Assembly (NCBI GenBank): GCA_964404855.1
Contig: CAYOLO010000002.1
Location: forward strand, 3,494 to 67,493
DNA length: 64,000 bases
Source: an uncultured Gammaproteobacteria bacterium
GTDB lineage: Bacteria > Patescibacteriota > Microgenomatia > CAYQLK01
Direction of reading: 5' to 3'
Below the pieces are notes generated by a model. That model made no database searches, was not told the origin of the DNA, and was given only the letters and a program-made list of their open reading frames with translations. Shown in pieces: positions 1,486-58,317 of this stretch. Within the stretch, counting starts at the first letter, position 1, and each line of letters begins with the position of its first letter. A program made the translations under genes and the position numbers.

Positions 1486-1522
1486 ATTTTATCTGAATAA
1501 TCTAAATAAAGTAAGAAAATTA

Positions 1523-18622: not shown

Positions 18623-20246
18623 TGGAATTAATCATAACAAACTTCGGTCGATTGAAGCTATCAAAAATGACCTCACGATTATTGATTCCCCTGAACTCGC
18701 TAGGTGTGCCAATCAACAAATCTGCACTATTCGAATCCGCACATGACAATGTGGGCTTAAATGAAATATTTGAAAATCCATGTACACTCCACAGACCAGA
18801 TGGTTCTGAATTAGCCTTTCGAGTTTTGATGTAATCTTCAGGACTATACTGCCAGTAATATAAAAGATTAGCGTAAGCTCGACCATATTCGTCAGTTACT
18901 AAAATCTTTGGATATTTATCTTTAACTTTTTTTAAACTTTCAGACATTTGCCTGTAACCATCCTGCCAGCTATCTGCAAATTTTTTAGGATAAAAATAAA
19001 TATAATCTGAGTAAAATATTAAAAATTGAAATAATAAAAGAAACAGAAAGGTGGTTAATAAAATTTTTTTTAGCTTGGCCTTTTTTACCTGCTCAAATAG
19101 ATATATCATTCCATACGAGCTAGTAAGAATTAATGCTGGTAACATGTGAAGTGTTCTTAGGGCGTGGGGAGTTTCTCTGGCTACGCTTGCAGCAATCGGA
19201 GAAAGTAAAATCCAAAACAAAATAAAATAAAAAAACTTCCTTTTGTTTTTGAATAGATATATTAATCCTATAAAAATAAGTATTATTTCAATCAAATATA
19301 GTTGCCCCATTTTTTGTGAAGAGAAGCGGGGATTTACATCTCCTGTTAAAAATAAATATTGATGTGAAAAGTGGTCCAAATAGTGATCAAAATAATTTTG
19401 TGCATGAAATACTCGGCGGTTATAAATTATTTTTGAAATTAATGAATTGTTATTTCGAAGTTGTAACGAATTTGATTTGCTGACTGGCTCAGGATCAGAA
19501 AAAATATTAACTTCATTAAACCTTAATTGTCCGGAGTTTGTTAATCCAAATGAGATTAATGGAATAATTAATATTATTCCTAATATCATTGACACGATTA
19601 GATATTTTGCGTAATTTATTGAGATTTTTTTGTTAAATAATTGCCATAATCCAAGAAAAAATATCCAAATTGGGAGAAAATACCGGGTACCATTGAATGC
19701 ATACATTGACCCGACAAAAAATATTACTGATAAAAATATTAACCTTGACTTAATTGTTGATTTAACAAAAAATAATGTACCAGCAGTAGCTAAAGTTGTC
19801 GCAAGGTTAGCTTCAAATGCTGCTCTGGATAATTGTATGCTCCAAGGTGAAATACAAATAAAGAGTGCGGCAAGGAGCGGATATTTTTTGTTTTTTGGAG
19901 TAATCTCTTTGGCTAAAAGATAAATTAATAATATTAATATAGTCCCTGAAATTATTGACGTTAATCTAACTGTTAGATAGTTCAGGCCAAATAATTTAAC
20001 AAGTGGAGCAGTTAGATAGATATATAGCGGTGCTTTATAGTCGCCGTATGCTGTGAATGCTTGAACTGGCAACAAGTTGCCATGTTCGTCTTTTAGTGTT
20101 TCAGCAATTGAATAACTATTGTAACCAATTGATACTTCATCCCAATATAGGGATGGAGGGGAATTAAAAATATTAAAGATTCTTAAAAAAAATCCAAAAA
20201 ATAATATTAAAATTAGGTATTTATTATTACTTATTAATTTTTTCAT
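18606..20246 (-). CDS. GT-C fold membrane glycosyltransferase, ArnT/PMT_2-like (tandem paralog A)
   Basis: LYWDEVSIGYNSYSIAETLKDEHGNLLP...YKAPLYIYL...VRLTSIISG. ~12 TM helices plus a C-terminal soluble domain. Confidence 0.7.
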   Translation of the reverse strand: MKKLISNNKYLILILFFGFFLRIFNIFNSPPSLYWDEVSIGYNSYSIAETLKDEHGNLLPVQAFTAYGDYKAPLYIYLTAPLVKLFGLNYLTVRLTSIISGTILILLIYLLAKEITPKNKKYPLLAALFICISPWSIQLSRAAFEANLATTLATAGTLFFVKSTIKSRLIFLSVIFFVGSMYAFNGTRYFLPIWIFFLGLWQLFNKKISINYAKYLIVSMILGIILIIPLISFGLTNSGQLRFNEVNIFSDPEPVSKSNSLQLRNNNSLISKIIYNRRVFHAQNYFDHYLDHFSHQYLFLTGDVNPRFSSQKMGQLYLIEIILIFIGLIYLFKNKRKFFYFILFWILLSPIAASVARETPHALRTLHMLPALILTSSYGMIYLFEQVKKAKLKKILLTTFLFLLLFQFLIFYSDYIYFYPKKFADSWQDGYRQMSESLKKVKDKYPKILVTDEYGRAYANLLYYWQYSPEDYIKTRKANSEPSGLWSVHGFSNISFKPTLSCADSNSADLLIGTPSEFRGINNREVIFDSFNRPKFVMINSNDCKK

Positions 20247-21924
20247 ATTGAGCTGAGTCTGTTATATCGATAGCTGTATCCTTATTAGGGGATAATATTT
20301 GTTTTATCGGCTCCGCTAAAAATTCGTCTTTTTCTCCAATTAATAATATTTTCTTATCTTTTGTAATGGTTTTGGGGTTAATGTTTATAAAACGATATTT
20401 TCCCAAAGCATTTCCTTCAAAACCTTCATACCCTGCTTTTGTTCCACCTTGGCTTAGATATATTTCTGGGTTCACTTTCAAATATAGTAGCCAATAAATG
20501 TAAGATTGTTCTAATTTATTTGATATCCATATTTCATCGTACTGATTCTCAACCTCATTACTATATTCTACTGCCTCTTTCCTTCCAAACTGCCAGTCCT
20601 GTGATGTTTCAAATTTGTAGTGACTAATGTATTGATGATAATAAAAATAAAAGTTAACCAAAGTAAAAATAATTAATAATCCAAATATTACTCTTTGTAG
20701 TTGATTTTTTTTCTTACTCAGCCAACTAATTCCCAAACCTCCTAGTATTGATAAAGGTATCATTAAAACTGATGCCCTGATCGAATGTGGAGCCTCAAAT
20801 GTCAGTGCTGACGCCATTGGTGAAATAAGTAGAAGTGACAATACAAGAACTTTTTCCTTGTTAAATTTTTTCTTTTTTACTAATACCCATGTGCCTAAAA
20901 TAATAAATGCCGATTGCGACAACAAAACTAAACCAACTCTTGTTGCGTGATGTCTTGGATTATCTTGTGTATAAATTAAAAATTCTGGTGAAAAATGCGA
21001 TAAGTAGTTAGAAAATAAGAGATCTAGCTGGTAAAAACTCCTATTGTGAAATAGTTTTGATGGCAAATTGTTGCCATTTTCAATGTCAAATAATTTTCTG
21101 GCTGGATCAATCTGGTCGATATTTTTTTTAGAAAAAATACTCGTGTCTTCAAAACGGTTTTGTGCTCCTGAAAAAAATATCGAATATGTGAGAGGAGCTA
21201 TTAGGATTAAGCTTAATAAAACGGAAAAAATAATTTGTTTTCTTGCTAAGCTAAAAATTTGTTTCCAGTAAAGAATTACTAGAATTGCAACAATAAGTGG
21301 AATAATTAATTTTGCAGAATGGTACGCATACATCCCAATAGCAAAGAAAACAATCGATATATTAATATTGTTATGTTTTCCATTAACAAATTTATAGAAA
21401 AAATATAATCCAAAGATAATAAAAAATACTAAAATATTTCCCTCAAAAGCCACTCTAGAAAAATGAATGGACCACGGAAGAAGTGCCAAAAATAAAGATG
21501 TATATATTGCAATCTTTCTTTTTTTAAACAATTGAAAAGTTAACAAATATATTCCCAAAACACTAAATAAGCCCAAAATCAAACTAGGCAATCTCACTAC
21601 ATTACCAACCGGTCCAAATATTGCTACGAATGGTACTGTCAAATAAATATATAACGGCGATTTGTAATCATCAAACGATCTAAACACCAGTGGAAGTGTT
21701 TCTCCGTACTCATCCTTGCCTGTTTCCAGTAGAGACCATGCATTGTAAGTAATTGATACTTCGTCCCAATTTAACGAAGTTGCTGACTTTTCAAAAGCGT
21801 AAGTCCGTACAAAAACAGCAATAAATAAAACACTTAAGATTAAGATATGTTTTTTACATTTACCCAGCATTTCCAAAATTATTGATGATTTCTTTGTCCG
21901 ATAGTTTGTAGTATTTTGTTTCAT
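20227..21924 (-). CDS. GT-C fold membrane glycosyltransferase, ArnT/PMT_2-like (tandem paralog B)
   Basis: LNWDEVSITYNAWSLLETGKDEYGETLP...YKSPLYIYL...VRLPSLILG is clearly paralogous to 18606..20246. The true start is possibly the internal MLGKCKK (~21870). Confidence 0.7.
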   Translation of the reverse strand: MKQNTTNYRTKKSSIILEMLGKCKKHILILSVLFIAVFVRTYAFEKSATSLNWDEVSITYNAWSLLETGKDEYGETLPLVFRSFDDYKSPLYIYLTVPFVAIFGPVGNVVRLPSLILGLFSVLGIYLLTFQLFKKRKIAIYTSLFLALLPWSIHFSRVAFEGNILVFFIIFGLYFFYKFVNGKHNNINISIVFFAIGMYAYHSAKLIIPLIVAILVILYWKQIFSLARKQIIFSVLLSLILIAPLTYSIFFSGAQNRFEDTSIFSKKNIDQIDPARKLFDIENGNNLPSKLFHNRSFYQLDLLFSNYLSHFSPEFLIYTQDNPRHHATRVGLVLLSQSAFIILGTWVLVKKKKFNKEKVLVLSLLLISPMASALTFEAPHSIRASVLMIPLSILGGLGISWLSKKKNQLQRVIFGLLIIFTLVNFYFYYHQYISHYKFETSQDWQFGRKEAVEYSNEVENQYDEIWISNKLEQSYIYWLLYLKVNPEIYLSQGGTKAGYEGFEGNALGKYRFININPKTITKDKKILLIGEKDEFLAEPIKQILSPNKDTAIDITDSAQYEKINK

Positions 21925-22783
21925 TATTTCGACTTGTGATAATTTTAGGATACTTTAATAAAAACCACATAATTGAACTTAACATGTTTGTGTCCATTTT
22001 AATGAGTGATTTAATTGTTAACTGAATCAAAGTAATATAAAAACTTAACAATATTTTTTTATCAGTAATATTTTTAGCAGAAAAAATTAACATATTTCTA
22101 GCGGCTATTTTTGTAATTCTGTCGGCGGAATGGTGTTTTCTAATTGAACCAATTTCGTGAAAATGATCAACCACAATCTCAGGTGCAAATAAAATTTCCC
22201 ATCCAGACTTAATTGCCCGGTAAGATAAGTCAATGTCCTCCCAATAAAATGGATTATATATTTCATTAAATCCACCAAGCTTTTTAAATTTTTCTAAACT
22301 AACTGCGCAACTACCTCCTGAAATCCAAAGCGTCCTACCAAATTCATTCTTTCCTTTTGCGTGATTAAGTAGACCTTTTTTAAAGATACCGACTCCTCTA
22401 CCCCTTAACACAATGTTTTTGTCTTCAAAACTTCGATCCTGAAAACCAATACCAAAAAGATTCTCGTTTTCAAAATAACTTTCAATTTGCCTTGTGTAAT
22501 CTTTGTTTACAGCTACATCTGTGTTAAGCAAAACAACGATTGGAGTTTTTGCTTTTTTTACCCCACTATTAACATTTGATGAAAAGCCTTTATTTATTTT
22601 ATTTGTTATTATTTCAACATTTGGAAAATTATTAGCCAAAAAACTTAAACTATCATCGCTTGAGTTATCGTCAGATATTATTATTTGTGAATCTGGAAAA
22701 TTTTTGATTATGTTTGGAAGATTACGTCTAAGCAATTTCGAACCGTTGTAGTTAGGTATAACGACTGTAATTTTTTTACTCAT
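21860..22783 (-). CDS. Glycosyltransferase family 2
   Basis: ITVVIPNYNGSKLL...IIISDDNSSDDS...LNTD. Confidence 0.8.
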   Translation of the reverse strand: MSKKITVVIPNYNGSKLLRRNLPNIIKNFPDSQIIISDDNSSDDSLSFLANNFPNVEIITNKINKGFSSNVNSGVKKAKTPIVVLLNTDVAVNKDYTRQIESYFENENLFGIGFQDRSFEDKNIVLRGRGVGIFKKGLLNHAKGKNEFGRTLWISGGSCAVSLEKFKKLGGFNEIYNPFYWEDIDLSYRAIKSGWEILFAPEIVVDHFHEIGSIRKHHSADRITKIAARNMLIFSAKNITDKKILLSFYITLIQLTIKSLIKMDTNMLSSIMWFLLKYPKIITSRNNETKYYKLSDKEIINNFGNAG

Positions 22784-25079
22784 TTTTTTTAATTTTAAAA
22801 ATAAACAAAGACATTAGTATTATAGATGTCAAAGAGACTAGCGCACCAACCCTAAATGAGTTGGGCTTGTATTCAAAAATAATTTCATTTTCTCCCGATG
22901 GAACGTAAATGCCGCGAAAAGTATGATTGGTTCTATATATTTTCGTGTCGATATTATTTACTTTGGCTTTCCAGCCAGGAAAATAATTATCTAGCAAAAC
23001 TAAGAATGAGTTGTTCGTGGTTTTGGTTTTTATTTTGACAGTATTAGATTCATAACTAGTAATATTGACAATACTCTCTGCATTTGTAGTTTGAGGAATA
23101 TTGTCACTCGTACCACCCATAACAACGGCTTGCGATCTGGGATCGAAATCTTTATCGAGCAAAGATTGTTTGCTTTCAATATCAGAATTAACATTAATAA
23201 TATTCTGAACAAAATAGGCACGCTCAAGATACTTTTGGTTAATGAATACGTTTGTAACTCCTTCACTAAAAATTGGTTTTGTATTATTTAATTCATTATC
23301 AAAGCTCAAAATATATTTTGCGTTAATTAAGGGATATAAATTTGAATTAATATTCTTAGGTCTGACAATACGGTTAAACTTTACTTGTTCAAGATTAGAA
23401 GATTCAATTAGTCCAATAAGTTCAGCATATGTTTTGGGATACAACGGATCGTAACCTTCAGGTGATTGAATTCCATACACGGCTGAAATGTTGGGTGGAA
23501 AAATTCGATCATCATTAGTTGAAACACGAAAAACAGAATTGTCGTGATTAATAAATTCGGTTATTTTGGTTGTGGGATAAAACAAAGGCTTGGTCGAATA
23601 GGGTAAAAACTTATTTGCATAAAATGCCAATTCTGCTAGAGAAATAATTGTAAGGCATATAAGACATAATTTAAGAGGAATAAGTTTTAATCGTGACAAA
23701 GATACAAACATTAATACGAGTAAAAATACAAACAAAGGAAAAATAAGATTTCGTTTTGCTGTTATTTGGTTTTTTAGGAAATCTTCAGGTAAGAAAATAT
23801 TGAAATTAAAATATGTTAAATAAATTAAAAGTCCAAATACTAAAGTCAATATTATAAAAACTGAAATCAACTTAAATTTAGTAATTTTAAGCTTATACAT
23901 TTCATCCACACCAAAAGCAGCTAGACAGCATAAAGCAAAAATTACGATAAATATTAAACGACTGGGTTGAGCAGAAGAAATAAATGGAATTTGATTTGCA
24001 TAAATTATCTGTGAAAGTAAATTGTTTGTTGAAAAAACTAAGGCAATAATTAAAAGAATTAAAAAGAAAATATTAATTTTTCTTTTTTTAATTCCTAGTA
24101 ATGAAAAAAATAATGCCGCTACAGAAAAGCTTAAATTAAATTCTAAATGATTCCATACGCCCCAATAATTTTGCCTTGCAGGAGAACCAAAAAAGTCTGG
24201 AGATATTAAAGAAATAAAATGTTTCAATGGAATAAACCAATCCTCCTGACCAAAATAGGATATGTCGACAGACCTGAATGAATTTTTTATTAATTCTAAA
24301 GTTGGAAAAATCTGAATCGAAACCGTAAGAATCGATAAAATTAAAATAATTAAAAGTTGAGGTACTCTGCTTATTAATCTACTGTTAAAAAAAATAACTA
24401 TGACAAAAAATACGATAACTAGATATGCATAAAAAGTAAATTGTAAATGTCCTGATATTGGAATTAATATTAGACTAGCGTAAAATAAAAATATATTTTT
24501 TCGGCTAAAACTTTGTTCTAAGCCTAAGACGAAATACAGAGCTAGTGGTAAAAAAGCAAAAATAAAGACAATATTTCCCCATTCTAGCCACCCGATTGAA
24601 AAACCTGACAAGGCATAGCAAACACTTGAAAAGGTAGCACTAATTTTTGAAACTGAAAGTTTTCTAAGAAAAAGAAACATTGAAAAAAAAGTGATTGGAA
24701 TCTGAATAAAAATAAATAAATGCCACGAGTCTAACCCTGAAGATAAAAGCATTATGTTCAAAGGAAAAAAGACACCAGACTGAAAATTTGCCAGTAGTGG
24801 ATAACCAGAAAAAGAATAAGGATTCCAGAGTGGAAGGCTAAAATTTTTGATTGCCTCGACAGTTAGATACTTCCATGGAAATATTTGCAAAAACGGGTCA
24901 GTAATTAGAGCATTTTTGAACGGATATCCAGCAGGGTAAATATTTAAAAATAAATCTCTAAAAGGATGGTATAGTCCGACCAAGTTATCACCAGGGAAAA
25001 GTTTTTTTGGCCACAAAATAATTAGGGTAGATAAAAAAATAATTACCGAAAATATTTTAAGAAAATATTTTTTCAACAT
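22776..25079 (-). CDS. YfhO-family polytopic membrane protein (GT-C, extracytoplasmic glycosyltransferase)
   Basis: 767 aa. N-terminal WNPYSFSGYPLLANFQSGVFFP. Many TM helices. C-terminal beta-rich domain with DNYFPGWKAKVNNIDTKIYRTNHTFRGIYVPSGENEIIFEYKP, as in YfhO (Y..GWkA.VdG...I...n..f.gv.v.aG.h.i...Y.P). Confidence 0.55.
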   Translation of the reverse strand: MLKKYFLKIFSVIIFLSTLIILWPKKLFPGDNLVGLYHPFRDLFLNIYPAGYPFKNALITDPFLQIFPWKYLTVEAIKNFSLPLWNPYSFSGYPLLANFQSGVFFPLNIMLLSSGLDSWHLFIFIQIPITFFSMFLFLRKLSVSKISATFSSVCYALSGFSIGWLEWGNIVFIFAFLPLALYFVLGLEQSFSRKNIFLFYASLILIPISGHLQFTFYAYLVIVFFVIVIFFNSRLISRVPQLLIILILSILTVSIQIFPTLELIKNSFRSVDISYFGQEDWFIPLKHFISLISPDFFGSPARQNYWGVWNHLEFNLSFSVAALFFSLLGIKKRKINIFFLILLIIALVFSTNNLLSQIIYANQIPFISSAQPSRLIFIVIFALCCLAAFGVDEMYKLKITKFKLISVFIILTLVFGLLIYLTYFNFNIFLPEDFLKNQITAKRNLIFPLFVFLLVLMFVSLSRLKLIPLKLCLICLTIISLAELAFYANKFLPYSTKPLFYPTTKITEFINHDNSVFRVSTNDDRIFPPNISAVYGIQSPEGYDPLYPKTYAELIGLIESSNLEQVKFNRIVRPKNINSNLYPLINAKYILSFDNELNNTKPIFSEGVTNVFINQKYLERAYFVQNIINVNSDIESKQSLLDKDFDPRSQAVVMGGTSDNIPQTTNAESIVNITSYESNTVKIKTKTTNNSFLVLLDNYFPGWKAKVNNIDTKIYRTNHTFRGIYVPSGENEIIFEYKPNSFRVGALVSLTSIILMSLFIFKIKKNE

Positions 25080-26100
25080 TTTTATTAAATTCTGATACTG
25101 AATATTTTTTTGCAGTAGTTTGTGCTGATTTCGACATTTGTGAAAATAGTTTGGGGTTACTAATTAATTCTAAAGTTTTTATTGCTAACATTTCAGCCGT
25201 AGTAAAAAATAATCCATTATTTTTTTCTAAAATATACTCTTTTGGTCCACCACCATCATAGACAATTGGTACTGATCCTGAGGAAGAGGCTTCAAGTATG
25301 GAAATACCAAAATGTTCAAAATATTCTGGATCAGACTCTTTACACTCAAATCCTGTTGCGTGCCAATAAACTTTTGACTCAGAAATAAGCTTCGATAGTT
25401 CCGTAAAACTTAGATTAGGAAAAAACTTTATTTTATAACCCTTTGCTTTGGACTTAAGTTGATCCAAATGCATCAAGTCTATATCTGAGATTCCTCCGAT
25501 TAAATACAAACTAAAATGTTTATTTTTTTTGCTTAGAATTTTGAATGCCTCAATTAATATATCCTGTCTTTTACTATTGAGTACGGCATCAAATCGGCCA
25601 ATAGAAATAATAATATTTTTTTTGTTTGATTTTTTAAAAAGAGTAACTGGAGGATAGAGAACTTCAGAATTTACTGAATATGTATTGTCAATTACTTTTT
25701 TTGTGAACTTAGAGTTAACAATCACGGAGTCAAACAATTTAAGCTTAATTTTATCTATTATTGTTGGTTTTATCTTACTGAATGGAACTTGAAAATGAAT
25801 ATAATTTTTTGAGGACATTGGTATTGGAATAGATCCATCAGACAAGTGAAGATAGTGGTCGTATTTTCTTAAAAATTGATACTTTGCCAACAAACCAAGA
25901 GAGTTGAGATTTATTTTGACCAAACTAAGTCCTTCTAGTGGTAGATTAAACCTTTTTTTAATATCTAATAAATTTATATCCTTATCAAATAGAATATCAA
26001 CTGAGTGTCCATTTTTTAGATAATTACTGCAGATCGCTAATATATATTTTTCCCCACCACCCAAGGTGTCAAGATATGGATCATATACTGCGACTCTCAT
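25057..26100 (-). CDS. Glycosyltransferase family 4
   Basis: EHFGISILEASSSGSVPIVYDGGGPKE motif. Confidence 0.75.
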   Translation of the reverse strand: MRVAVYDPYLDTLGGGEKYILAICSNYLKNGHSVDILFDKDINLLDIKKRFNLPLEGLSLVKINLNSLGLLAKYQFLRKYDHYLHLSDGSIPIPMSSKNYIHFQVPFSKIKPTIIDKIKLKLFDSVIVNSKFTKKVIDNTYSVNSEVLYPPVTLFKKSNKKNIIISIGRFDAVLNSKRQDILIEAFKILSKKNKHFSLYLIGGISDIDLMHLDQLKSKAKGYKIKFFPNLSFTELSKLISESKVYWHATGFECKESDPEYFEHFGISILEASSSGSVPIVYDGGGPKEYILEKNNGLFFTTAEMLAIKTLELISNPKLFSQMSKSAQTTAKKYSVSEFNKNVEKIFS

Positions 26101-26906
26101 TTGCTTGACTCTTTTTCCAACTGATCTTCAATTAAATCGTATCGCTCCTTAATACTTGGAGTCTGTTGTCGCTCCCAGAGTTTAAAATAAGTAATCATTA
26201 CGCTAAACACTTGCATAAACGACTCAATTACACCTCTTATGCCATTTTTATAGTTTTCATCACTGATATATTTTTTAAAAAATTGTGTAAGAAACAGCTT
26301 AAATAACCTTACCGACGTAATCTTAGGATGGTTAATATTGAAGAGGTTCTCAGCCTCGATTTCTGACCAAGAATTTGTTTTTTCTATCATTGCCGCAACA
26401 CTTCTATGTGTTAAGTGAACGATGTTTGATTTTAGATTTGACTCCTTTCCTTCAAAATTAACCCCTTCATGTATATGTCCTGTCCAGCCTTTAAATTTTT
26501 TAAGCCTAAATAGTCTGGGTTGGGCGTCTGGATACCAAGTTTTGCTATCCAACTCTTTGCCTAATATATAATTTTTTCTATTAACCCAATAAGCAGAACT
26601 TGGATTTTTCGAGGTGATAACTGATTTTATTTCCTCAGCAAGCTTTTTTGTAATCCTCTCATCCGCGTCTAAATAAAATATCCATTCTGTCTTTAGCTCA
26701 TTTAATATGGCGTTTCGCTTTTGTGAAAAATTTAAATTTTTCTCTAATTTGATTACTTGAGCGCCAAGACTACTGGAAATTTTTGTTGTAGAATCGGTAG
26801 ATGAATCGTCTAAAAGGACAATATCATTAGTTAGTAATTTAAGGCTTTTAATAGCATTACCTATTAATTCTTCTTCATTTTTGGCAATAATTACTGCAGT
26901 TATCAT
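26097..26906 (-). CDS. Glycosyltransferase family 2 (WaaE/KdtX-like subfamily)
   Basis: ITAVIIAKNEEELI...LDDSSTDST...YLDADER. Paralog of 17804..18622. Confidence 0.8.
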   Translation of the reverse strand: MITAVIIAKNEEELIGNAIKSLKLLTNDIVLLDDSSTDSTTKISSSLGAQVIKLEKNLNFSQKRNAILNELKTEWIFYLDADERITKKLAEEIKSVITSKNPSSAYWVNRKNYILGKELDSKTWYPDAQPRLFRLKKFKGWTGHIHEGVNFEGKESNLKSNIVHLTHRSVAAMIEKTNSWSEIEAENLFNINHPKITSVRLFKLFLTQFFKKYISDENYKNGIRGVIESFMQVFSVMITYFKLWERQQTPSIKERYDLIEDQLEKESSK

Positions 26907-27778
26907 ATTTTTTTAAATATACTCCCTGTATACATTTTAAACATTAAAAAATCTTGAACGGCAATTTTTTGTGCCTTACGGCCGTTAATTAAAAAAACTA
27001 AGGATTGCCGAAAAACAGCAATTTTTGTTCTAATTGGTGAGTAAATAAGGGCAAAATACATTCGATTGCGCGTAATATAGTAATCTTGAATTGGAGAACC
27101 TACACTTGATGATTTGGCGTTATGATGAAACATGCTCGAAATAGGAATATATTTAATTTTGAACCCATTTTTTTTGGCTCTTAAACTAAAATCTAAATCT
27201 TCTAAATATAAAAAGTATTTTTCGTTCATAAAGCCAACCTTTTCAAAAACTTTTCTGCTTATTAATTCTCCGCAACCTGTTGAGTAATCAATTTCTTTAA
27301 TTTGATCGTATTGTCCACGATCCTCTTCATCAACTCCGATGTGCGTGCCATAACAATTATCCCAATCTATCTTTCCTCCTGCGTACCAGATAACTTTTGG
27401 ATTATCGGTAAAATATATTTTTGGCGACAGAATGTCAGCTTCCCCTCTATTTTTGAATAAATTAAGGATCGTATCTTTTTTTATAAGAGTATCGGGGTTT
27501 AATATAAAAAAATAGTCTGAATCAGATTCCAGTCCTTTTTTAATTGCTATATTAATTCCGCCGGCAAACCCAGTATTATTTTTGTTTGTAATTATTTTGG
27601 CTTTTACGTAATTTTTTGAGATTAAACTAACAGTATCGTCTTTTGAGGCATTGTCTGAAATAATTACTTCAAGGCTAAAACCTTCTAGTTTAGATTGATA
27701 GACGGATTTTAGACAGTCTAATATGTAATCCATACTATTGTAAGTTACTATCAATACAGAAATTTTTGAGTTGTTCAT
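26903..27778 (-). CDS. Glycosyltransferase family 2 (rhamnosyltransferase-like)
   Basis: ISVLIVTYNSMDYILDCL...IISDNASKDDT...LNPDT. Confidence 0.8.
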   Translation of the reverse strand: MNNSKISVLIVTYNSMDYILDCLKSVYQSKLEGFSLEVIISDNASKDDTVSLISKNYVKAKIITNKNNTGFAGGINIAIKKGLESDSDYFFILNPDTLIKKDTILNLFKNRGEADILSPKIYFTDNPKVIWYAGGKIDWDNCYGTHIGVDEEDRGQYDQIKEIDYSTGCGELISRKVFEKVGFMNEKYFLYLEDLDFSLRAKKNGFKIKYIPISSMFHHNAKSSSVGSPIQDYYITRNRMYFALIYSPIRTKIAVFRQSLVFLINGRKAQKIAVQDFLMFKMYTGSIFKKI

Positions 27779-29247
27779 TTTATTGATGATCTAAATATTG
27801 TAATATTTTTTATTAATCTATCTTTTGCTGTTAAAAAGCTAGTTATTAAATAAACAACGATTCCACAAGATAATATTCCAAAAACGGTAAATATATTGCT
27901 TGGTTCAACGGTTGCGAATAAAAATTTTAAAACTAATATTAAAACAAGTGTGGAAACTATTGGAGAAAATAATACTTTTACAGCGTTAATTTTTAGTTCT
28001 TTGTATCCGATATAGAATGCAAGCAAACTCGACGCTGTAACGATTAACCACGCTATAGCAACCCCGAGGCTCTCAAATTTTGATGCTAATGGAATGCTTA
28101 GTATCCAAGTAAGACTTGTCCATAATAGCATTAGTTTTAAGGTGGTTTTTATTTTACCGACCGCATTAAGTGCGTTTGTAATTATGATTGTTACAGAGCT
28201 AACATACGATCCAAGTATGTAAATTTGAAGTAGGCTATAAGCAGGCAACCATTTTTCATAATTTGGAATAATCCCGATTAAACTACTTGAAGACATTAAT
28301 AATGATGTAAGAATTGGGAAGGTAAGCAAAGCTGAAATAAAGATTGCTTCTTCAATCGCACGACTTAATGCTTGTTTGTCTGATTGAAGCCTTGAAAAGG
28401 CAGGAAAGGTTACTTTTATAACATTATCCATAATTACTCTTAAAGGAAGATATGCCCATTTTTGTGCCCAACCTAAATATCCAATTTGAGTAACATTTAG
28501 TAATTTTCCTAATATTATTGTCATAAAATCGTCCTTAATTAATGCCAAAATACTGTTTAATTGAAACAATACACCGAAGTTAATCAATTTTTTTGCTGAT
28601 TGTTTATCAATGCCAAGACTAGGCTTCCAAGGAGAAACAAAATACATGGTAATTACACCAAAAATTGACCTTAATATCACTGCATATGTAAAGCTATTTA
28701 GTCCGTGCCCTTGCCATGCAAGATATAGAACCGAAATTGAAAAGATTAAATTTTCGACGATTTGAGGGATAATAAATTTTTCAAAGGCTAATTTACGTTC
28801 AAGTAATATTGAAGGAATCGTTTTTAAGGATGATAGAAACAGTGAAATTATTAAGACTCGAAGCAACCAAACGCCCTTTTGATCAAGATTAAAAATACTA
28901 CCTGCCCAAATAGAAAATATTAAACCACTTATTACTAATATTCCAACTAAAGACTGTTGAATTGTAAATGTTGTTACTAAATCCTTTCTTGAGACAGCCT
29001 CCTTTTTTTGTATTAAGGCGGCAGCTAGTCCAATATCTGAAAGATATGTTAAAAAGCCGGTAATTGCCGATACTAAAATAAAAATTCCATATTCCTTGGG
29101 TGCCAGTAGAATCGTTAAACCTAAATTAGATATAAAACTAATAACTTGAATGAAGATTGTCCGTCCAACCAAAGAAAAAACACCCTTAATCGAGCGTTTT
29201 TTAACTGCAGCTATATCTAGCTCAATTGATGAATCTAGGTCTGACAT
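27775..29247 (-). CDS. Oligo/polysaccharide flippase, MOP/PST family (Wzx-like)
   Basis: 490 aa with ~14 TM helices. N-terminal KKRSIKGVFSLVGRTIFIQVISFISNLGLTILLAPKEYGIFILVSAI is typical of PF01943. Confidence 0.75.
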   Translation of the reverse strand: MSDLDSSIELDIAAVKKRSIKGVFSLVGRTIFIQVISFISNLGLTILLAPKEYGIFILVSAITGFLTYLSDIGLAAALIQKKEAVSRKDLVTTFTIQQSLVGILVISGLIFSIWAGSIFNLDQKGVWLLRVLIISLFLSSLKTIPSILLERKLAFEKFIIPQIVENLIFSISVLYLAWQGHGLNSFTYAVILRSIFGVITMYFVSPWKPSLGIDKQSAKKLINFGVLFQLNSILALIKDDFMTIILGKLLNVTQIGYLGWAQKWAYLPLRVIMDNVIKVTFPAFSRLQSDKQALSRAIEEAIFISALLTFPILTSLLMSSSSLIGIIPNYEKWLPAYSLLQIYILGSYVSSVTIIITNALNAVGKIKTTLKLMLLWTSLTWILSIPLASKFESLGVAIAWLIVTASSLLAFYIGYKELKINAVKVLFSPIVSTLVLILVLKFLFATVEPSNIFTVFGILSCGIVVYLITSFLTAKDRLIKNITIFRSSIK

Positions 29248-30940
29248 TCTTGATTTTTTTTAGAAATAATAGACAAATAATTATTGATAAACTAACAAGG
29301 CTAATTATCTCACTAATTAACCTGATTGGAGTACGGGAAAAATTAAGTTCAATTATGGATTCTCCTTGAGGAATCATCACTGTTATTAACTTTAGCCGAT
29401 TAACATTATCTACTTTTGTTTTTTGACCATTTATTTTGACTTCCCACCCAGGAAAATCAAATGTGTTGAATTGTACTTTTCCATTTGTCGAAAGGGCTGC
29501 TCGATATTTTTGATTTCCTGAATTAAACTCTATATTTTCTATAATCCCTTCCCCTTCAAGTATTTCGAATTGGCTTTGAGGTAAGTCAATTTCATCGATA
29601 TCAGGAATGGTTGTAAAATCTTTAGAGACTTTGGTTGCAACACCTTTTGGAATATATTCGAACGAAGACCTGCTGGTCGCCCAATCAAGTCTTTGTTTTG
29701 ATAAGTAATCAGAATCAGAAAACTGCTTAAATGACTCTGGAGAAAACCTACCGAATAACTCAAAAATTGTTATTGCAAATACAATCGTTAAAAATAAATA
29801 TGAATATTTTTTATTTTTTTTACTTGTTTCATTGCATAAAAATGCGAAAACAAATGGTGCAAATAAGGTTACGAAGGTTAAAAATCTCCATGGAAATTGC
29901 AAATAAGCAATTGGCTCAAATGCTAACCAAATAGGTTTGGAATATTTTAGCGTCATAAATAATGGCAGCAAAATAAACAATGGAAGTAGCTGATTTAAAA
30001 CTATTTTTTTATTTTTTATTACATTGTAAGTAATAATTCCAAGGCTCACCATTATTCCAATTAATAATACTTTTCCAACCTCAAACGACATTCCATCGTT
30101 TAATTCAGGTAATGAGCCTCCGTATCCCCAAGCAGAGTCCCAAAGTTGCCGAATATATACAAAATGAATTCTATAGTCAGCTAGTTCAGTAAGAAGTATT
30201 CCGTCAACAAGCGTAAATTTTTTTTCAATGATGGATGGGATAGACGAAAAAGCGGAAAGTCCTCCTCCAAGCCCTAATGAAACAACCGTTATAACTATTT
30301 TTCTAACCGACCGTGTTTGTATATAAAGTACAAAAACCCAGACCAATATAATTAACAAAAATCCAAGTGCTGTAAGCGTGTGAGTAAGAATAAGCCCTGC
30401 AAAAGCTAAAGATAAAAATACAAAACTTTTTATTAGATTTTTAGATTTTTTATCAAAAATATTATAAATATTTAATAAAATTAGAGGTAAAAATACAAAG
30501 GAAAATGCTTCTGATAATGCACCCCTTACGTACACATCTAGCGCCCTATAGCTGGTTAATACATAAAACGATGAACAGATTGCTGATATATTTTTTGAAT
30601 AAAACTTATTTAATAAAAAATACATCGAAACCATTGATCCTAAAAACGAGATAAAAATTATTAGTTTTACTGACAGAATTAAGGATGCCCCCATTAAATA
30701 AAATACTGAACCAATATAATAAATTAATGGCGGGTAAAAAATAAATAATGGATATCCAAAACCAAATCCTAAATGATTAACCCACCTAACTGGAAATTGT
30801 CCAGATTTTAAGGCTTCTGTAAGTAAATAAATTCGAGCAACTTGCTGGTCATCATGAACACTAAAAAACTGATTATTTAGTATTGAATAACTAACATAAA
30901 TTAACGCAACTAATGGAATTAAAATAATAATTTTTTTCAT
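29222..30940 (-). CDS. Polytopic membrane protein, YfhO-like / GT-C candidate (tandem paralog A)
   Basis: N-terminal FFSVHDDQQVARIYLL...FPVRWVNHLGFGFGYPLFIFYPPL. C-terminal domain FDFPGWEVKINGQKTKVDN shares the PGW[KE]xxxNG motif with the YfhO-like 22776..25079. Confidence 0.45.
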   Translation of the reverse strand: MKKIIILIPLVALIYVSYSILNNQFFSVHDDQQVARIYLLTEALKSGQFPVRWVNHLGFGFGYPLFIFYPPLIYYIGSVFYLMGASLILSVKLIIFISFLGSMVSMYFLLNKFYSKNISAICSSFYVLTSYRALDVYVRGALSEAFSFVFLPLILLNIYNIFDKKSKNLIKSFVFLSLAFAGLILTHTLTALGFLLIILVWVFVLYIQTRSVRKIVITVVSLGLGGGLSAFSSIPSIIEKKFTLVDGILLTELADYRIHFVYIRQLWDSAWGYGGSLPELNDGMSFEVGKVLLIGIMVSLGIITYNVIKNKKIVLNQLLPLFILLPLFMTLKYSKPIWLAFEPIAYLQFPWRFLTFVTLFAPFVFAFLCNETSKKNKKYSYLFLTIVFAITIFELFGRFSPESFKQFSDSDYLSKQRLDWATSRSSFEYIPKGVATKVSKDFTTIPDIDEIDLPQSQFEILEGEGIIENIEFNSGNQKYRAALSTNGKVQFNTFDFPGWEVKINGQKTKVDNVNRLKLITVMIPQGESIIELNFSRTPIRLISEIISLVSLSIIICLLFLKKIKNVRPRFIN

Positions 30941-32571
30941 CGTTTTTTTTGAAGTTTAATGAAATAGATAATTATTACTAAACAGCCAAGAATACTTAAA
31001 ACATTTGAAACCGTTCTTATTTTTGTATCAACAAACTCGAGTTTAACATCACTTCTGCCATTTAATATTTTGAAGTTAATTAATCCATCGGTTTGATAAT
31101 TAATTTCAGATTCGCTTCCATTTATAAATAACTTCCATCCCGGATAATACATTTTATTGACCGTTATAAAAGCGGCATCATCAGAGACTGTGGTAAATGA
31201 AATTAATTGAGTTTTCTGACTTAGATTCTCAACTATTACTGATTGAGGTGATGTAATTAAACTATTTGGTCTTAATTTTAATTCCTTATTAAACCAAATC
31301 GTTGATAATTCTGACTGATTTACTGTTGTTGAATCATTAGTTAGATAGTATTCGTCTGGATAGTTATTTTTTTCTACTTGAATTTGTGGAAAATATAAAA
31401 AGATTGTAAGACCAATTATTAGTATTAAATATATATTTTTAATCTTTTTAAAATAAGTTAAAACCAAAATAAGAATTAATGTACTTGAGAAGGTAGTTAG
31501 TGACAAAAATCTCCAAGGAAACTGAACTAATTTGTCGATACTAAATATTTCCCAAATTTTTGCTGAAATTGGAGTAATGAAAAAAATTGAAATACAAAAC
31601 AAGCTGAATGCAGATAAAAATTTTATTCTCCAGTTTTTATTGTGATGATCTAAAAAGAAAATAATTAATCCTAACAAAGAAAATATTATTGCGACAGTAG
31701 ATATTGGATATGATTTTTCACCGGAACTTGAAATATTGGTAATAAATGGTAGATCAATTAGCAAACTGAACACGCTGGGATAATGTTCCGCGTAACGAGC
31801 AATTAATATTTGAGGCTGTAAAGTATAAGCCCTTTCAAAAAGAGCAGGTGTCCAAAAGCTCGCTGAGACTAACAATGAGAGTAAAAATATCTTAATTAAA
31901 GATAAAATATTTTTGTATGACCAAGTTGTAAAAATAAGTCCGGCTAAATATGTAGCCGGAAGAAGAATTAATGCCAAAGTATTATGACCAATAATTACCA
32001 TTACCGAGGCGACAACAGAAGTAATAAAGGCTAGTTTTCTTTTGTTTTGCAAATAGCCGATTATTCCTAATGTGATAAATGGAACAAAAGCAAAAACAAA
32101 AATCTCTCCAAACGATCCCCTTTTATAAAGATCAATTATTTTGTATGGAGCAAATATATAAAACGTTGTGACGGTTAATGAAATAAGCGAATTTTTTGAA
32201 AATTTGCTTGAAAGTAAATAAATACCAGCAGATCCAATTAGTCCAAGAGCAAAAATTGATATTTTTACCGAGGTTTGTAATCCAAATCCAAATAAATGAA
32301 AAAACTCGCTTAAATAAAAAAAGCCCGGATAAAAAAAATTAAATATTGGATATCCATACCCATAATTTAGGTTATCTGCAATTCGAACAGGAATATGAAA
32401 ATCTGAAAAGCTTTTAAAAAATGCACCAACCCTAATTAACATTAAATTTCCATCATCGGTGCTAAAAAAACCAGCACTCAATAATGGCCAACTAAATATA
32501 ATATTAATAAATAGAATAAATAAAAAACCACAAATTATTTCGCGGTTTTTATTAAACGCCTTTTTGAGCAT
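30937..32571 (-). CDS. Polytopic membrane protein, YfhO-like / GT-C candidate (tandem paralog B)
   Basis: FFSTDDGNLMLIRVGAF...IPVRIADNLNYGYGYPIFNFFYPGF and the C-terminal KMYYPGWKLFINGSE. Clear paralog of 29222..30940. Confidence 0.45.
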   Translation of the reverse strand: MLKKAFNKNREIICGFLFILFINIIFSWPLLSAGFFSTDDGNLMLIRVGAFFKSFSDFHIPVRIADNLNYGYGYPIFNFFYPGFFYLSEFFHLFGFGLQTSVKISIFALGLIGSAGIYLLSSKFSKNSLISLTVTTFYIFAPYKIIDLYKRGSFGEIFVFAFVPFITLGIIGYLQNKRKLAFITSVVASVMVIIGHNTLALILLPATYLAGLIFTTWSYKNILSLIKIFLLSLLVSASFWTPALFERAYTLQPQILIARYAEHYPSVFSLLIDLPFITNISSSGEKSYPISTVAIIFSLLGLIIFFLDHHNKNWRIKFLSAFSLFCISIFFITPISAKIWEIFSIDKLVQFPWRFLSLTTFSSTLILILVLTYFKKIKNIYLILIIGLTIFLYFPQIQVEKNNYPDEYYLTNDSTTVNQSELSTIWFNKELKLRPNSLITSPQSVIVENLSQKTQLISFTTVSDDAAFITVNKMYYPGWKLFINGSESEINYQTDGLINFKILNGRSDVKLEFVDTKIRTVSNVLSILGCLVIIIYFIKLQKKR

Positions 32572-32572
32572 A

Positions 32573-34090
32573 TTATTTGACTTCGAAAATTCTTAAATAG
32601 GTATTTGAATTACCCTTTGCATACTTGCCCAATTCCAATATATTTTGATTTTTAAATAATTCTTCATCCTGTGTTAGGTTATAGATAAAAAAAGTTTTCT
32701 GGGTTTTTGATTTTTCTAACACTTCGACCGGAATGGTTTTTACAGGGTAGTATCCTTTTATTTCAACATTTGGATTTTTAATCAATTCAATTTCTAACGC
32801 ATAAGGAAGAAGGCCAAATGTTCCTTCGGTTCCAACAAAAATCTTTTCAGCTAGAGACGCGTTGTTAATTATTTCAACAGCTTCTTCTATTCCACCCCCT
32901 GCTGGCCAATCATTAAATAGTTGATTTTTATCGTTTTCAGGAATAATGGAGTTTGTTGGATTAATTATAATTGACATTATTCCCAATATTGGCCAAATTA
33001 AAATAATTGAAATTGTAAAAAGTTTTAATTTTAGTGATTTAATTTTTTCAATTTTTTCGACCACAAAATATGAACTTACAACAAAAATTATTGGAACCAA
33101 ATAGAGTAGATATCTTGGATAAATTATTTTTCCAAAAAAAGCAGTAGTAAAAAATGGCACCATTACCCAGATAAGTAAGAAAATTATTTTAAAGTTTAGC
33201 TTGAATCCGTAATAAATGGCAGACAAAATAAATAGAAAAAATGGAATTGGGGTTAAGTATTGAAACATCCAACTAATCAAGGCTGGCGTATTACCAAAGA
33301 CTAAGTAAAATGGGTTTTGAATAAATTCTTTGTTCGTGAGAATAAAAGTATGATTTTTCTCATCTATCATATTGAATAACGGGAAAAGCCTTAGCGAATT
33401 AAACATTGAATAAGCAATAAAGGTTGAAAGTAAAAATAATCCAATCAGCTTAAAAACAGTGGTTTTATTAAAACTAAATTTGTTTCTAATTTGAAGTAGT
33501 AAACTAAACGGAAGCAAATATATAAAAAAGTTTGCAGAAGACTTAGTCAAAAGTCCAAGACCGATTGTGAAACCTAATAAAAGTGACAAGTCAACTCTTG
33601 GTTTTTTTACCAAAAGCACTGTAAATAACACACTATAAATGCTTATCATTGAGATTAAACTTTCGTATATTGCTAATCGGTTATATACAAAAAAGAATGG
33701 ACTGGTTAAAAACAAACTTGCAGCAATAAGTCCTGTAAGCGAATTTTTTAGAACTCTACCTAAAAAATATATTCCAATGATTGAAACCAAGCCATAAAGA
33801 ACTGATAGTAATCTTACTGCCAGTAAGGAGTCATTTAATAACTTAACTGGAATCATTGCTATCCAAATAAATAATGGTTGTTTCCCGTCAAGAAGCGAAA
33901 TATATCTTAAAGATGCATCATTGGCAGCAATTTGAGCCCATCGTACATAGATCGCCTCATCTGTAAAAATTGGAGTCTTGTTAATAAAAACAAGATTGAT
34001 TAGTAAATAGATAATGATAATTCCAAAAAGTATGAATAGTTGATTAAGAGGAATTACTTTATTTATTTTCACAATAATTTTCGATGCCAT
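32573..34090 (-). CDS. GT-C fold membrane glycosyltransferase, ArnT/PMT_2-like
   Basis: PIFTDEAIYVRWAQ...KQPLFIW...AVRLLSVLYG (DE / PL / RL motifs). ~12 TM helices plus a C-terminal soluble domain. Confidence 0.65.
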   Translation of the reverse strand: MASKIIVKINKVIPLNQLFILFGIIIIYLLINLVFINKTPIFTDEAIYVRWAQIAANDASLRYISLLDGKQPLFIWIAMIPVKLLNDSLLAVRLLSVLYGLVSIIGIYFLGRVLKNSLTGLIAASLFLTSPFFFVYNRLAIYESLISMISIYSVLFTVLLVKKPRVDLSLLLGFTIGLGLLTKSSANFFIYLLPFSLLLQIRNKFSFNKTTVFKLIGLFLLSTFIAYSMFNSLRLFPLFNMIDEKNHTFILTNKEFIQNPFYLVFGNTPALISWMFQYLTPIPFFLFILSAIYYGFKLNFKIIFLLIWVMVPFFTTAFFGKIIYPRYLLYLVPIIFVVSSYFVVEKIEKIKSLKLKLFTISIILIWPILGIMSIIINPTNSIIPENDKNQLFNDWPAGGGIEEAVEIINNASLAEKIFVGTEGTFGLLPYALEIELIKNPNVEIKGYYPVKTIPVEVLEKSKTQKTFFIYNLTQDEELFKNQNILELGKYAKGNSNTYLRIFEVK

Positions 34091-35169
34091 TTGTATAGTA
34101 TAAAGCTTAACGGAAGACTAGATATGATAATTATATATTTTAGATAGAATGACAATCCTTCATATGAGCCAGATTGTATATATGGAATATGGGAAAAAGG
34201 TAAAAGTAGACTGATTAAAATAATACAATCTCTTGTGTAGCTACCCTTTGGAGAAATATAGGCGAGTGGAAGGACCCAAATTATGTACCAAATTTGAAAC
34301 TCTGTTCTAAAGGAAGCAATAAAAATTGAGAGTAAAGTTAAAAATAATAATGAGCTTGAAAAATATTTTGGAGTAAATTTTTTAATAATTAATGAAGGTA
34401 TCATAAAAAAGTTCGCGTATTTAATAAGCCCGCCAATAATTAAGGAAAAATAACTGATTTTTGTGTTTGCGACATAAACAACACTAATAATTAACGCTAA
34501 GGCGACATAAATGTCATTGTGGTTCCCGATTAATACCTCAGTAATTATTAACGGATTAAATAAAAATAGAAGGTTTTTATTGTCTGATTTTGAATTTAAT
34601 AACTTACTCGCAATAATTGCTGATATTATCGCAATTATTTTGAACAAAAATATTTGTATAAGTAGTTTAGTGGATATTAATGTGACTATTATTCCTGGTA
34701 TCAACCACAAAGGTCCGTATGGATACGTTCTATGTGTCCATCGCATAAAGTGAACCATGGGGTTGTTTGGGAAGTCGAGAGCTGAAAAATTATATGGATT
34801 CCCCCCATATTGAGTAATTATTTTTGAATCAAAAATGTAATTAAAAATGTCATAAGAAAGTAAAGCAGAATACGAAAAGGTTAATGGAAAAACTAATACA
34901 AATATTAATGATTTTTTGTTTATGTCGGCTAAATTTTTTTGGAAACTTAAAACCAAATAGATAATAATCCAAACAACTAAAAGTGAAGCAAAAACTAAGC
35001 TTGAAAGATTGCGATGATAGAAACCTAGATTTTGTAAACTATGTTGAAAAGACAAAACAAAAGTATTTTGTGAAAGCGTTAGATTTAGATCTGTAAGCGA
35101 GTATGAATAAACTGTTGTAGTTATTGATACTAAAAAAATGAGCAACAATATTAGCTTGGAACGATTCAC
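34069..35169 (-). CDS. Polytopic membrane glycosyltransferase, GT87/PIG-M/DUF2029-like (mannosyltransferase-like)
   Basis: SYDIFNYIFDSKIITQYGGNPYNFSAL...HRTYPYGPLWL matches the PIG-M/GT87 pattern D-x-D-Y-x-V-F-x-D-A...G-x-S-P-Y...Y-x-Y-T-P-L-L. Confidence 0.45.
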   Translation of the reverse strand: MNRSKLILLLIFLVSITTTVYSYSLTDLNLTLSQNTFVLSFQHSLQNLGFYHRNLSSLVFASLLVVWIIIYLVLSFQKNLADINKKSLIFVLVFPLTFSYSALLSYDIFNYIFDSKIITQYGGNPYNFSALDFPNNPMVHFMRWTHRTYPYGPLWLIPGIIVTLISTKLLIQIFLFKIIAIISAIIASKLLNSKSDNKNLLFLFNPLIITEVLIGNHNDIYVALALIISVVYVANTKISYFSLIIGGLIKYANFFMIPSLIIKKFTPKYFSSSLLFLTLLSIFIASFRTEFQIWYIIWVLPLAYISPKGSYTRDCIILISLLLPFSHIPYIQSGSYEGLSFYLKYIIIISSLPLSFILYKWHRKLL

Positions 35170-41423: not shown

Positions 41424-41438
41424 AAGATATATAGTAGC

Positions 41439-58310: not shown

Positions 58311-58317
58311 ATAAATA

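Follow-up and report, generated by a model that had tools for sequence, protein, structure and literature searches.

Predicted extracytoplasmic glycosyltransferases of the YfhO and PF10131 families in a glycan operon conserved across Microgenomates

We analyzed a 64 kb stretch of contig CAYOLO010000002.1 (the window), in which three large membrane proteins are encoded on the minus strand at positions 22776–25079 (767 aa), 29222–30940 (572 aa), and 30937–32571 (544 aa). These open reading frames (ORFs) had been correctly delimited in a preliminary description of the DNA, which took all three products for YfhO proteins of a Bacillus- or Listeria-like system that glycosylates teichoic acids. The results presented below indicate that the three proteins are extracytoplasmic glycosyltransferases (GTs) of the GT-C type, related to each other through their transmembrane (TM) core and their C-terminal domain; this assignment draws on structural models for two of them and, in the case of 29222–30940, on sequence similarity. 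One is a YfhO-family member, while the two others are assigned to a sister family, PF10131. All three genes belong to a large operon whose core gene order is conserved across Microgenomates.

The 767-aa protein passes the Pfam YfhO model PF09586 with 91.4 bits versus a gathering cutoff of 28.5 (E = 6.5e-26), and the same domain is carried by 120 of 120 of its homologs among the matches listed. In this protein, an N-terminal multi-TM core is followed by an extracytoplasmic C-terminal domain of ~250 aa, whose last part is a beta-sandwich, and then by a TM helix at the very end. No match at E ≤ 1 was obtained when the PDB was searched with its sequence. The claim that there are three YfhO proteins in the window held for this protein but not for the other two. 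The 572-aa protein is a GT-C-type membrane protein that scores above the cutoff of a different model, PF10131 (PTPS_related; 54 versus 26.4 bits, E = 1.4e-14). The 544-aa protein has no Pfam match of its own, even at E ≤ 10, and is classified as a PF10131-like GT-C glycosyltransferase from its homologs, most of which carry PF10131 and some of which additionally carry PF09586, and from its modeled fold. Neither protein matched PF09586 at E ≤ 10 in the Pfam search, and a “faint” match to 30937–32571 in precomputed annotation is the sole trace of YfhO in the pair. The two are paralogs, as previously supposed, with 27% identity across 550 aa (E = 5e-39), and stand in tandem, 30937–32571 being paralog number 1 and 29222–30940 paralog number 2.

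The relationship between the two families was evaluated by profile–profile comparison with hhalign. The 30937–32571 family matched the YfhO family over 347 columns of the TM core with a probability of 99.8% (E = 1.2e-27), while its matches to the PMT_2 families encoded in the same operon were weaker (1e-13 to 3e-9). Because of this difference, PF10131 is placed by these profiles as the closest relative of YfhO among the families present here, i.e., as its sister family. The N-terminus of 29222–30940 likewise matched that of the YfhO protein (E = 1e-4). Thus, “YfhO-like” is a fair description of the tandem pair as far as relatedness is concerned, but both proteins fail formal YfhO membership. 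PF10131 bears a misleading full name (“6-pyruvoyl-tetrahydropterin synthase-related”); the family has been placed among the GT-C/PMT-clan families (PMC7801869).

A second region of similarity is located at the C-termini of the three proteins. The pattern PGW[KE]..[IV]N[GN] was sought in the complete six-frame translation of the window, where it occurred exactly three times, once in each of the focal proteins: as PGWKAKVNN (22953–22979) in the YfhO protein, within its C-terminal beta-domain, PGWEVKING (29426–29452) in the 572-aa protein, and PGWKLFING (31117–31143) in the 544-aa protein. The same pattern did not occur in any of 2000 residue shuffles of the cluster proteome. The motif had been described as ending in N-G in all three proteins, which is true for the tandem pair, but the YfhO protein reads N-N at this position. 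In every case the motif is preceded by [YF]-x- and trailed by a hydrophobic tail. The similarity of the C-termini, which had been noticed by eye, is supported by alignment statistics: BLASTP matched the C-terminus of the 767-aa protein to those of the 572-aa (E = 1e-7) and 544-aa (E = 5e-6) proteins, and hhalign aligned the C-terminal regions over 93 columns, which include the strand with PGW as well as the terminal TM helix, with a probability of 99.0% (E = 8e-18). Y-x-P-G-W is invariant or nearly so in both family alignments. In the 30937–32571 family, for which conservation was read from an alignment of 83 members, P477 is invariant and G478 and W479 are at least 90% conserved; in the YfhO family alignment, Y700, P701, and W703 are conserved.

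At their N-termini, the tandem paralogs share the motifs HDD/TDD...R...PVR...G[FY]GYP[LI]F that had been attributed to them. Residues D40, R47, P61, R63, G71, Y72, G73, P75, and F79 (30937–32571 numbering) are conserved across the 83 family members. D40, which is at least 90% conserved, is part of the T38-D39-D40 sequence (32452–32460) that the 544-aa protein has in its first extracytoplasmic loop; the counterpart in the 572-aa paralog is HDD (30848–30856). D40 aligns with D31 of the YfhO protein (24987–24989), which follows TM1 and is nearly invariant in the YfhO family; both D31/D42 and D40 are conserved. By analogy with the GT-C paradigm, this loop aspartate may be catalytic. Both the N- and the C-termini of the focal proteins are rich in K and R, which suggests that both ends are cytoplasmic, and therefore that the aspartate-bearing first loop and the beta-domain lie outside the membrane.

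AlphaFold2 models were built from the family alignments for 30937–32571 (pLDDT 95.3, pTM 0.93) and 22776–25079 (pLDDT 90.0, pTM 0.91), and 29222–30940 was placed through its 27% identity to the former. In the PDB, the best Foldseek matches of the 30937–32571 model were PglB, STT3, AftA, AglB, AftD, DPY19, and ArnT, and those of the YfhO model were AftD, STT3, ArnT, and PglB. Structural matches further included AftB and EmbB, and all significant matches of both models were GT-C enzymes. A C-terminal beta-domain followed by a helix is present in both models (strands 445–513 and helix 517–543 in the 544-aa protein; strands 670–737 and helix 740–766 in the 767-aa protein), in agreement with the beta-rich C-termini of the preliminary description.

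The source of the DNA is, judging from protein similarity, a bacterium of the candidate phyla radiation (CPR), class Microgenomates, and not a Firmicute. For all three proteins searched, the homologs that bear names come from Levy-, Curtiss-, Gottesman-, and Daviesbacteria, and release factor 2 (RF2) encoded in the window is 52–55% identical to RF2 of those Microgenomates. Many GTDB representative records with a Microgenomates-type locus (among L006–L084 of our set of relatives) are titled “uncultured Gammaproteobacteria bacterium” (third-party annotation, or TPA, assemblies; binchicken or SRP isolates). Such titles look like placeholders or wrong taxonomy.

To see how the locus is organized in other genomes, an alignment of 14 sequences of the 30937–32571 family was used to scan one genome per species, and 508 relatives of this protein were found. 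In the best 80 of the 508 loci, ORFs were called and each was assigned to a window protein by BLASTP; counts were restricted to the 44 loci with full 10 kb flanks. A recurrent order was observed: (short-chain dehydrogenase/reductase (SDR), UDP-Glc dehydrogenase, SDR), a synthase like dolichyl-phosphate mannose synthase (DPMS), PMT_2, small GT2, GT87-like, PMT_2, PF10131, PF10131, (second small GT2), Wzx, GT2, GT2, GT2, YfhO, GT4. An ortholog of the YfhO protein was present in 38 of the 44 loci, the tandem PF10131 pair in 34, and the whole core set in 31; it follows that the GT-Cs, the synthases, Wzx, and the cytoplasmic GTs form a single unit of inheritance. Per 21.5 kb, the relatives contained a median of 6 GT-C genes and a maximum of 10. 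Gene order in the closest relative, L005 (CAYROP01; 75% identity), matches that of the window along 18 genes, and the core order is shared by Levy-, Curtiss-, and Gottesmanbacteria, while lineages vary in the sugar-nucleotide genes that they carry at the locus head. The multiplication of GT-Cs is thus not specific to this genome but an old, lineage-wide arrangement. Two differences from the window were seen among the relatives (e.g., L012:13118–13849 and L072:1533–2831). In most of them, the second PF10131 gene and Wzx are separated by a gene for a third TM-less Dpm1-like GT2 of ~240 aa, which neither the window nor L005 contains. At the locus head, relatives have UDP-glucose 6-dehydrogenase and SDR genes where the window has RmlA and Gmd.

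Two genes of the operon encode candidate polyprenyl-phosphate-sugar synthases. The product of 37463–38614 (minus strand) contains a GT2 domain (PF00535, 2.4e-28) and a four-helix GtrA/DPMS-type TM domain (PF04138, 1.1e-13; 51.8 bits versus a cutoff of 26.1), and it aligns over its full length with the P. furiosus DPMS 5MLZ (residues 1–379 versus 23–373, E = 2e-46). The preliminary description saw in it a Dpm1-GtrA fusion. Both domains are indeed there, and according to the alignment they make up the native full-length architecture of a type-III DPMS. We compared it with the features defined for type-III enzymes in PMC12992685. Equivalents of DAD, H94, P96, R117, Y118, R131, S135, K178, and N248 are retained, and the dolichyl-phosphate (Dol-P) phosphate ligands R117 (SRY), R131, S135, and K178 (KIL) are matched by the aligned residues TRY, R, S, and KIH. 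The type-III motif DADxQHPP (where x is L, F, or Y) is replaced with DADGSHKP. Of the polar-pocket and gating residues, N248 is kept, while N277 is changed to I (in a gapped segment) and F338 to L. R341 is changed to N, as in type-III enzymes from outside Thermococcales. In type-III DPMS, the TM domain was proposed to flip the lipid-sugar product of the enzyme, and such enzymes were described as restricted to hyperthermophilic archaea (PMC12992685, 2026). The 37463–38614 protein may combine a synthase and a flippase, in effect supporting the logic of the preliminary description.

The second gene, 35177–35905 (minus strand), encodes a Dpm1/PpgS-like GT2 of 242 aa that has the domain previously ascribed to it (PF00535, 1.1e-27) and no predicted TM segment. 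Its best PDB match was also the P. furiosus DPMS (1.5e-18), and it shares 26% identity with the catalytic domain of 37463–38614 (E = 5e-18), with the DAD motif present. The nearest NCBIfam models, all below their cutoffs, were PgfS, Dol-P-hexose transferase, and PpgS. From its sequence, it is a probable second polyprenyl-phosphate-sugar synthase. Orthologs of the synthases in the relatives match ArnC, PgfS, AglJ, and PpgS models. In characterized systems, a TM-less GT-A can pair with a separate membrane protein, and Wzx-type flippases may replace GtrA (PMC8035078).

The array that contains all these genes extends from 1523 to 41423 and comprises 34 listed co-directional genes on the minus strand, with no intergenic gap larger than 40 bp. 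Three different transferases, the number given originally, proved to be an undercount: besides the two candidate synthases, the operon encodes ten recognizable GT-Cs, of which six are PMT_2, two PF10131, one YfhO, and one GT87/MptA-B-like. The array also contains eight GT4 and eight GT2 genes whose products are neither synthase-like nor membrane-embedded. Two PMT_2 (ArnT/PMT-like) proteins are encoded close to the focal genes on the same strand, one at 32573–34090 (PF13231, 3.7e-16) and the other at 35931–37448, directly downstream of the DPMS-like synthase (PF13231, 1.1e-12; a sub-cutoff Agl23-like match was also obtained). The GT87/MptA-B-like GT-C candidate, at 34069–35169 (minus strand), is a membrane protein with eight TM segments encoded immediately downstream of the small GT2. 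Precomputed annotation assigns it to PF26314 (MptA_B_family), and 12 of its 31 orthologs match PF09594 (GT87; best E = 1.1e-5); the protein itself had no match in the Pfam search, and the family profile gave a chance match only in the PDB. The Wzx/MOP-family flippase is encoded at 27775–29247 (minus strand; PF13440, 2e-48; also PF01943 and MurJ), and its sub-cutoff NCBIfam matches include an O-glycosylation Wzx and TuaB. Between it and the YfhO gene are genes for a cytoplasmic GT4 (25057–26100) and two cytoplasmic GT2s (26097–26906 and 26903–27778).

The downstream half of the array (1523–22783, minus strand) contains genes for a Bac_transf priming transferase (1523–2161), ManC (2165–3268), seven GT4s, five GT2s, an acetyltransferase, a Wzy_C protein of the O-antigen ligase/polymerase type (9019–10608), four further PMT_2 GT-Cs (7568–8998, 14302–15843, 18606–20246, and 20227–21924), and a polytopic membrane protein. 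At the head of the operon, the product of 38614–39630 is Gmd (448 bits with TIGR01472, cutoff 415), and an rmlB identity for this gene was rejected on the same grounds. The product of 39627–40541 is RmlD-like (166 bits with the rmlD model, under the cutoff of 224) and is possibly a GDP-4-keto-6-deoxymannose reductase. RmlA is encoded at 40554–41423 (463 bits with TIGR01207, cutoff 361); though it is genuine, neither RmlB nor RmlC was found in the window. ManC is located at the opposite array end from the Gmd and Rml genes, at a distance of 36 kb.

Several less certain members of the locus were also noted. The polytopic protein (15735–16865, 376 aa) has no Pfam family. Its sole match, weak and sub-cutoff, is to [quoted passage not shown], and the protein may represent an eleventh GT-C-like enzyme. 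Because of a 108 bp overlap with the upstream gene, its start may be miscalled; with a BLASTP E of 0.13, it was not accepted as a paralog of 34069–35169. An ORF truncated by the left window edge (1–1488, minus strand, at least 496 aa) is directly downstream of the priming transferase gene; its product has an N-terminal TM anchor and a DUF4012 domain (PF13196, 5.9e-17), and the ORF may be part of the glycan operon. At the operon head, between the gene for a CAP-domain protein and rmlA, an ORF at 41439–41705 (minus strand) encodes 88 aa with hydrophobic stretches and no family match. A 104-aa ORF at 41356–41670, which overlaps the rmlA start and lacks a family match, is probably spurious.

The GC content is 0.29–0.32 across the glycan operon compared to 0.35–0.40 in the flanking housekeeping genes. 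Of the ORFs in the window that reach 120 aa, nearly all use the minus strand, and the only two plus-strand ones fall inside minus-strand genes. No tRNA or Rfam family was found in the 64 kb, and promoter and terminator scans at both array ends gave nothing above shuffled controls. The rest of the window encodes, among others, FtsEX, a PcsB-like protein, and UppP. Likely surface proteins that flank the operon are a CAP/SCP-domain protein (41708–42643, minus strand) and a lamin-tail-domain (LTD) protein (44598–45815, minus strand). A third protein of this flanking group (51925–53439, minus strand, 504 aa) has a LytR_C domain only, without the LCP catalytic domain. Type IV pilus genes are found at 56006–61118 (minus strand) and encode PilB, PilC, and a protein with an N-methyl motif and a beta-propeller.

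The sequence of events from a lipid-sugar synthase through flipping to an extracytoplasmic GT-C, as put forward in the preliminary description, is a fair reading of these genes, but a stand-alone GtrA, a component of the three-part system invoked there, is missing. The data show to which families and folds the proteins belong, that the families are homologous, how the operon is laid out, and that its gene order is conserved across Microgenomates; we infer the lipid-sugar donors, the sugars themselves, the flipping component, and, above all, the acceptor. We consider that there is about an even chance that polyprenyl-phosphate-sugar donors feed extracytoplasmic glycosylation, by the GT-Cs, of the glycan that the same locus exports through Wzx. 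According to this proposal, cytoplasmic GT2 and GT4 enzymes would assemble an oligosaccharide on undecaprenyl phosphate, starting with the Bac_transf priming enzyme. Wzx would export the oligosaccharide, and the Wzy_C protein would possibly polymerize or ligate it. In parallel, 37463–38614 and 35177–35905 would load single sugars onto polyprenyl phosphate, and the GtrA-like TM domain of the former may flip its own product. Once outside, these sugars would be transferred to the exported glycan by the YfhO protein, the PF10131 pair, and a minimum of seven additional GT-Cs (six PMT_2, one GT87-like), each acting at its own position or linkage. The shared PGW beta-sandwich, kept at the membrane surface by the terminal TM helix, would bind the acceptor.

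Several observations weigh against the glycosylation of a Wzx-exported glycan as just outlined. The presence of at least ten GT-Cs exceeds the usual need of simple side-chain decoration, and the Wzy_C protein and the nearby pilus genes are equally compatible with a protein acceptor. The window yielded neither an LCP catalytic domain nor any other attachment enzyme that would define where the product ends up. Wherever a GT2 matches a named synthase, the score lies far under the curated NCBIfam cutoff, which makes the sugar and even the lipid acceptor putative. Flipping by the DPMS-like TM domain is hypothetical, with the defining N277 and F338 not kept, and there is no stand-alone GtrA ORF in the window. 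A characterized PF10131 member with biochemical or genetic data was not found in the literature, nor was any functional study of YfhO in Patescibacteria, of PF10131/PTPS_related, or of Microgenomates envelope glycans. We know of no biochemical or genetic data for any CPR glycan.

The alternatives differ chiefly in the acceptor, which sequence alone cannot settle. The original proposal was that CsbB/GtcA/YfhO-type three-component systems add sugars to lipoteichoic acid (LTA) or wall teichoic acid (WTA). One true YfhO-family protein, Dpm1/CsbB-like GT2s, and a GtrA-type TM domain are indeed present, and characterized YfhO proteins glycosylate LTA or WTA (PMC8035078, PMC5836110). Yet the host is a CPR Microgenomates bacterium, LtaS, TagF/TarF, TagO, and an LCP catalytic domain were not found in the 64 kb, and a hidden Markov model search classes only one of the three focal proteins as YfhO. 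Moreover, in the relatives the focal genes are fixed beside Wzx, GT2, and GT4 polysaccharide genes rather than teichoic-acid genes. We therefore regard the teichoic-acid framework as very improbable here.

The GT-Cs may, alternatively, O-glycosylate surface proteins (pilins, S-layer, or LTD- and CAP-domain proteins) from polyprenyl-phosphate-sugars in a PMT- or Pgf-like manner, with the Wzy_C protein perhaps acting as an en bloc O-oligosaccharyltransferase for the Wzx-exported glycan. The six PMT_2 proteins and the Wzy_C protein agree with this idea, and O-oligosaccharyltransferases such as PglL and PilO carry a Wzy_C domain; en bloc O-glycosylation of pilins by 9019–10608 is conceivable. The C-terminus of the YfhO protein matches PgfM2, both synthase-like GT2s match PgfS and AglJ, and the top NCBIfam neighbor of Wzx is an O-glycosylation flippase, but all these matches are far below curated cutoffs. 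Genes for a type IV pilus and for LTD and CAP surface proteins are in the same window, but the pilus genes are more than 15 kb away, past housekeeping genes, and an acceptor protein with a Ser/Thr-rich region was not identified. The priming transferase and 12 cytoplasmic GT2/GT4 enzymes, in turn, suggest a long polymer instead of short O-glycans. GT-C-dependent protein glycosylation is documented in streptococci (PMC12041528), which speaks for this explanation; on balance, we regard it as unlikely here. We are similarly doubtful about a third possibility, namely that the GT-Cs elongate or branch most of the glycan from polyprenyl-phosphate-sugars, as happens with mycobacterial lipomannan, lipoarabinomannan, and arabinogalactan, the product being a lineage-wide envelope lipoglycan or polysaccharide. 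It would account for ten GT-C genes of four families, including the GT87/MptA-B-like one, for the density of GT-Cs in the relatives, and for the two or three paralogs of lipid-sugar synthases in the ancestral locus. It is also consistent with the structural matches to AftA, AftD, AftB, and EmbB and with the resemblance of the small TM-less GT2 to the PpgS model. However, processivity is not readable from sequence, the evidence for GT87/MptA-B is weak (best E of 1e-5, in orthologs only), and the locus also holds a complete Wzx-type set for cytoplasmic assembly.

The operon occupies ~40 kb of a genome that is probably ~1 Mb (a related Levybacteria chromosome is 1.14 Mb), and, given the conserved core order, it may well encode a core envelope pathway of the Microgenomates as a class. 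CPR bacteria represent a large share of bacterial diversity, and, to our knowledge, nothing is known chemically about their envelope glycans. The mechanism class, multi-component transmembrane glycosylation, is already well established, and the results do not overturn current ideas. They do give PF10131 a concrete placement, as the sister family of YfhO, characterized by the GT-C fold, a loop aspartate that is conserved, and a shared PGW domain on the acceptor side. They also reveal a type-III-DPMS-like enzyme outside hyperthermophilic archaea and an unusually high GT-C density in a conserved Microgenomates glycan locus. A bolder version, improbable as it stands, is that the Microgenomates locus, with its type-III-DPMS-like synthase, one or two TM-less synthases, Wzx, GT2s and GT4s, and at least six GT-Cs of four families (the PF10131 pair among them), specifies an envelope glycopolymer that defines the lineage and that these ultra-small CPR cells assemble from polyprenyl-phosphate-sugars, for the most part extracytoplasmically, in the mycobacterial style. 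If that were true, PF10131 would constitute a GT-C family with a new function, and bacteria would possess, in the DPMS-like enzyme, a synthase that flips its own product.

Among known systems, the closest in logic are the multi-component systems of Gram-positive bacteria, i.e., CsbB/GtcA/YfhO of B. subtilis and S. aureus, GtlA/GtcA/GtlB of Listeria, and CsdAB/CD/EF with CflA of L. lactis. In these systems a Dpm1-like GT-A makes a polyprenyl-phosphate-sugar, which after flipping serves a polytopic GT-C on the outer side of the membrane; the same scheme is read here from genes, one of which encodes a true YfhO member. The presence of several GT-A/GT-C sets per genome is also shared with L. lactis and B. 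subtilis. The differences are the CPR host, the absence of visible teichoic-acid genes and of a stand-alone GtrA in the window, and the PF10131 affiliation of two of the three focal proteins (29222–30940 passes the model, and most 30937–32571 homologs carry it), a family that is placed here nearest to YfhO and shares the C-terminal PGW domain of the latter. Furthermore, the GT-A/GT-C pairs of Gram-positive bacteria are scattered, while here two or three putative synthases would serve at least ten GT-Cs in one operon. The S. mutans Pgf system (PgfS, PgfM1, PgfE, and PgfM2) likewise combines a GT2 synthase with YfhO-like GT-Cs. Residues 688–759 of 22776–25079 match the C-terminus of PgfM2 (18 versus 1500 bits), and both synthase-like GT2s match PgfS (54–59 versus 500 bits), in all cases far below the cutoff; unlike in S. 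mutans, no target adhesin was identified.

The P. furiosus type-III DPMS (5MLZ, 9EP0) and 37463–38614 are alike in the GT2 domain, the interface helices, and the four-helix GtrA-like TM domain. They differ in that the latter has a bacterial host, reads DADGSHKP, and does not keep N277 and F338; because the type-III motif residues are partly changed and the host is bacterial, the donor sugar is uncertain. In the mycobacterial network of Ppm1/PpgS and GT-Cs (PimE, MptA/B/C, Emb, Aft, and Rv3779), many GT-Cs similarly depend on few polyprenyl-phosphate-sugar synthases, and the TM-less PpgS-like GT2, the GT87/MptA-B-like protein, and the structural matches to AftA, AftD, and EmbB extend the likeness. 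Sequence similarity to the mycobacterial enzymes is at the clan level only, and, unlike in mycobacteria, the genes of the window are gathered in one operon together with a Wzx-dependent assembly set.

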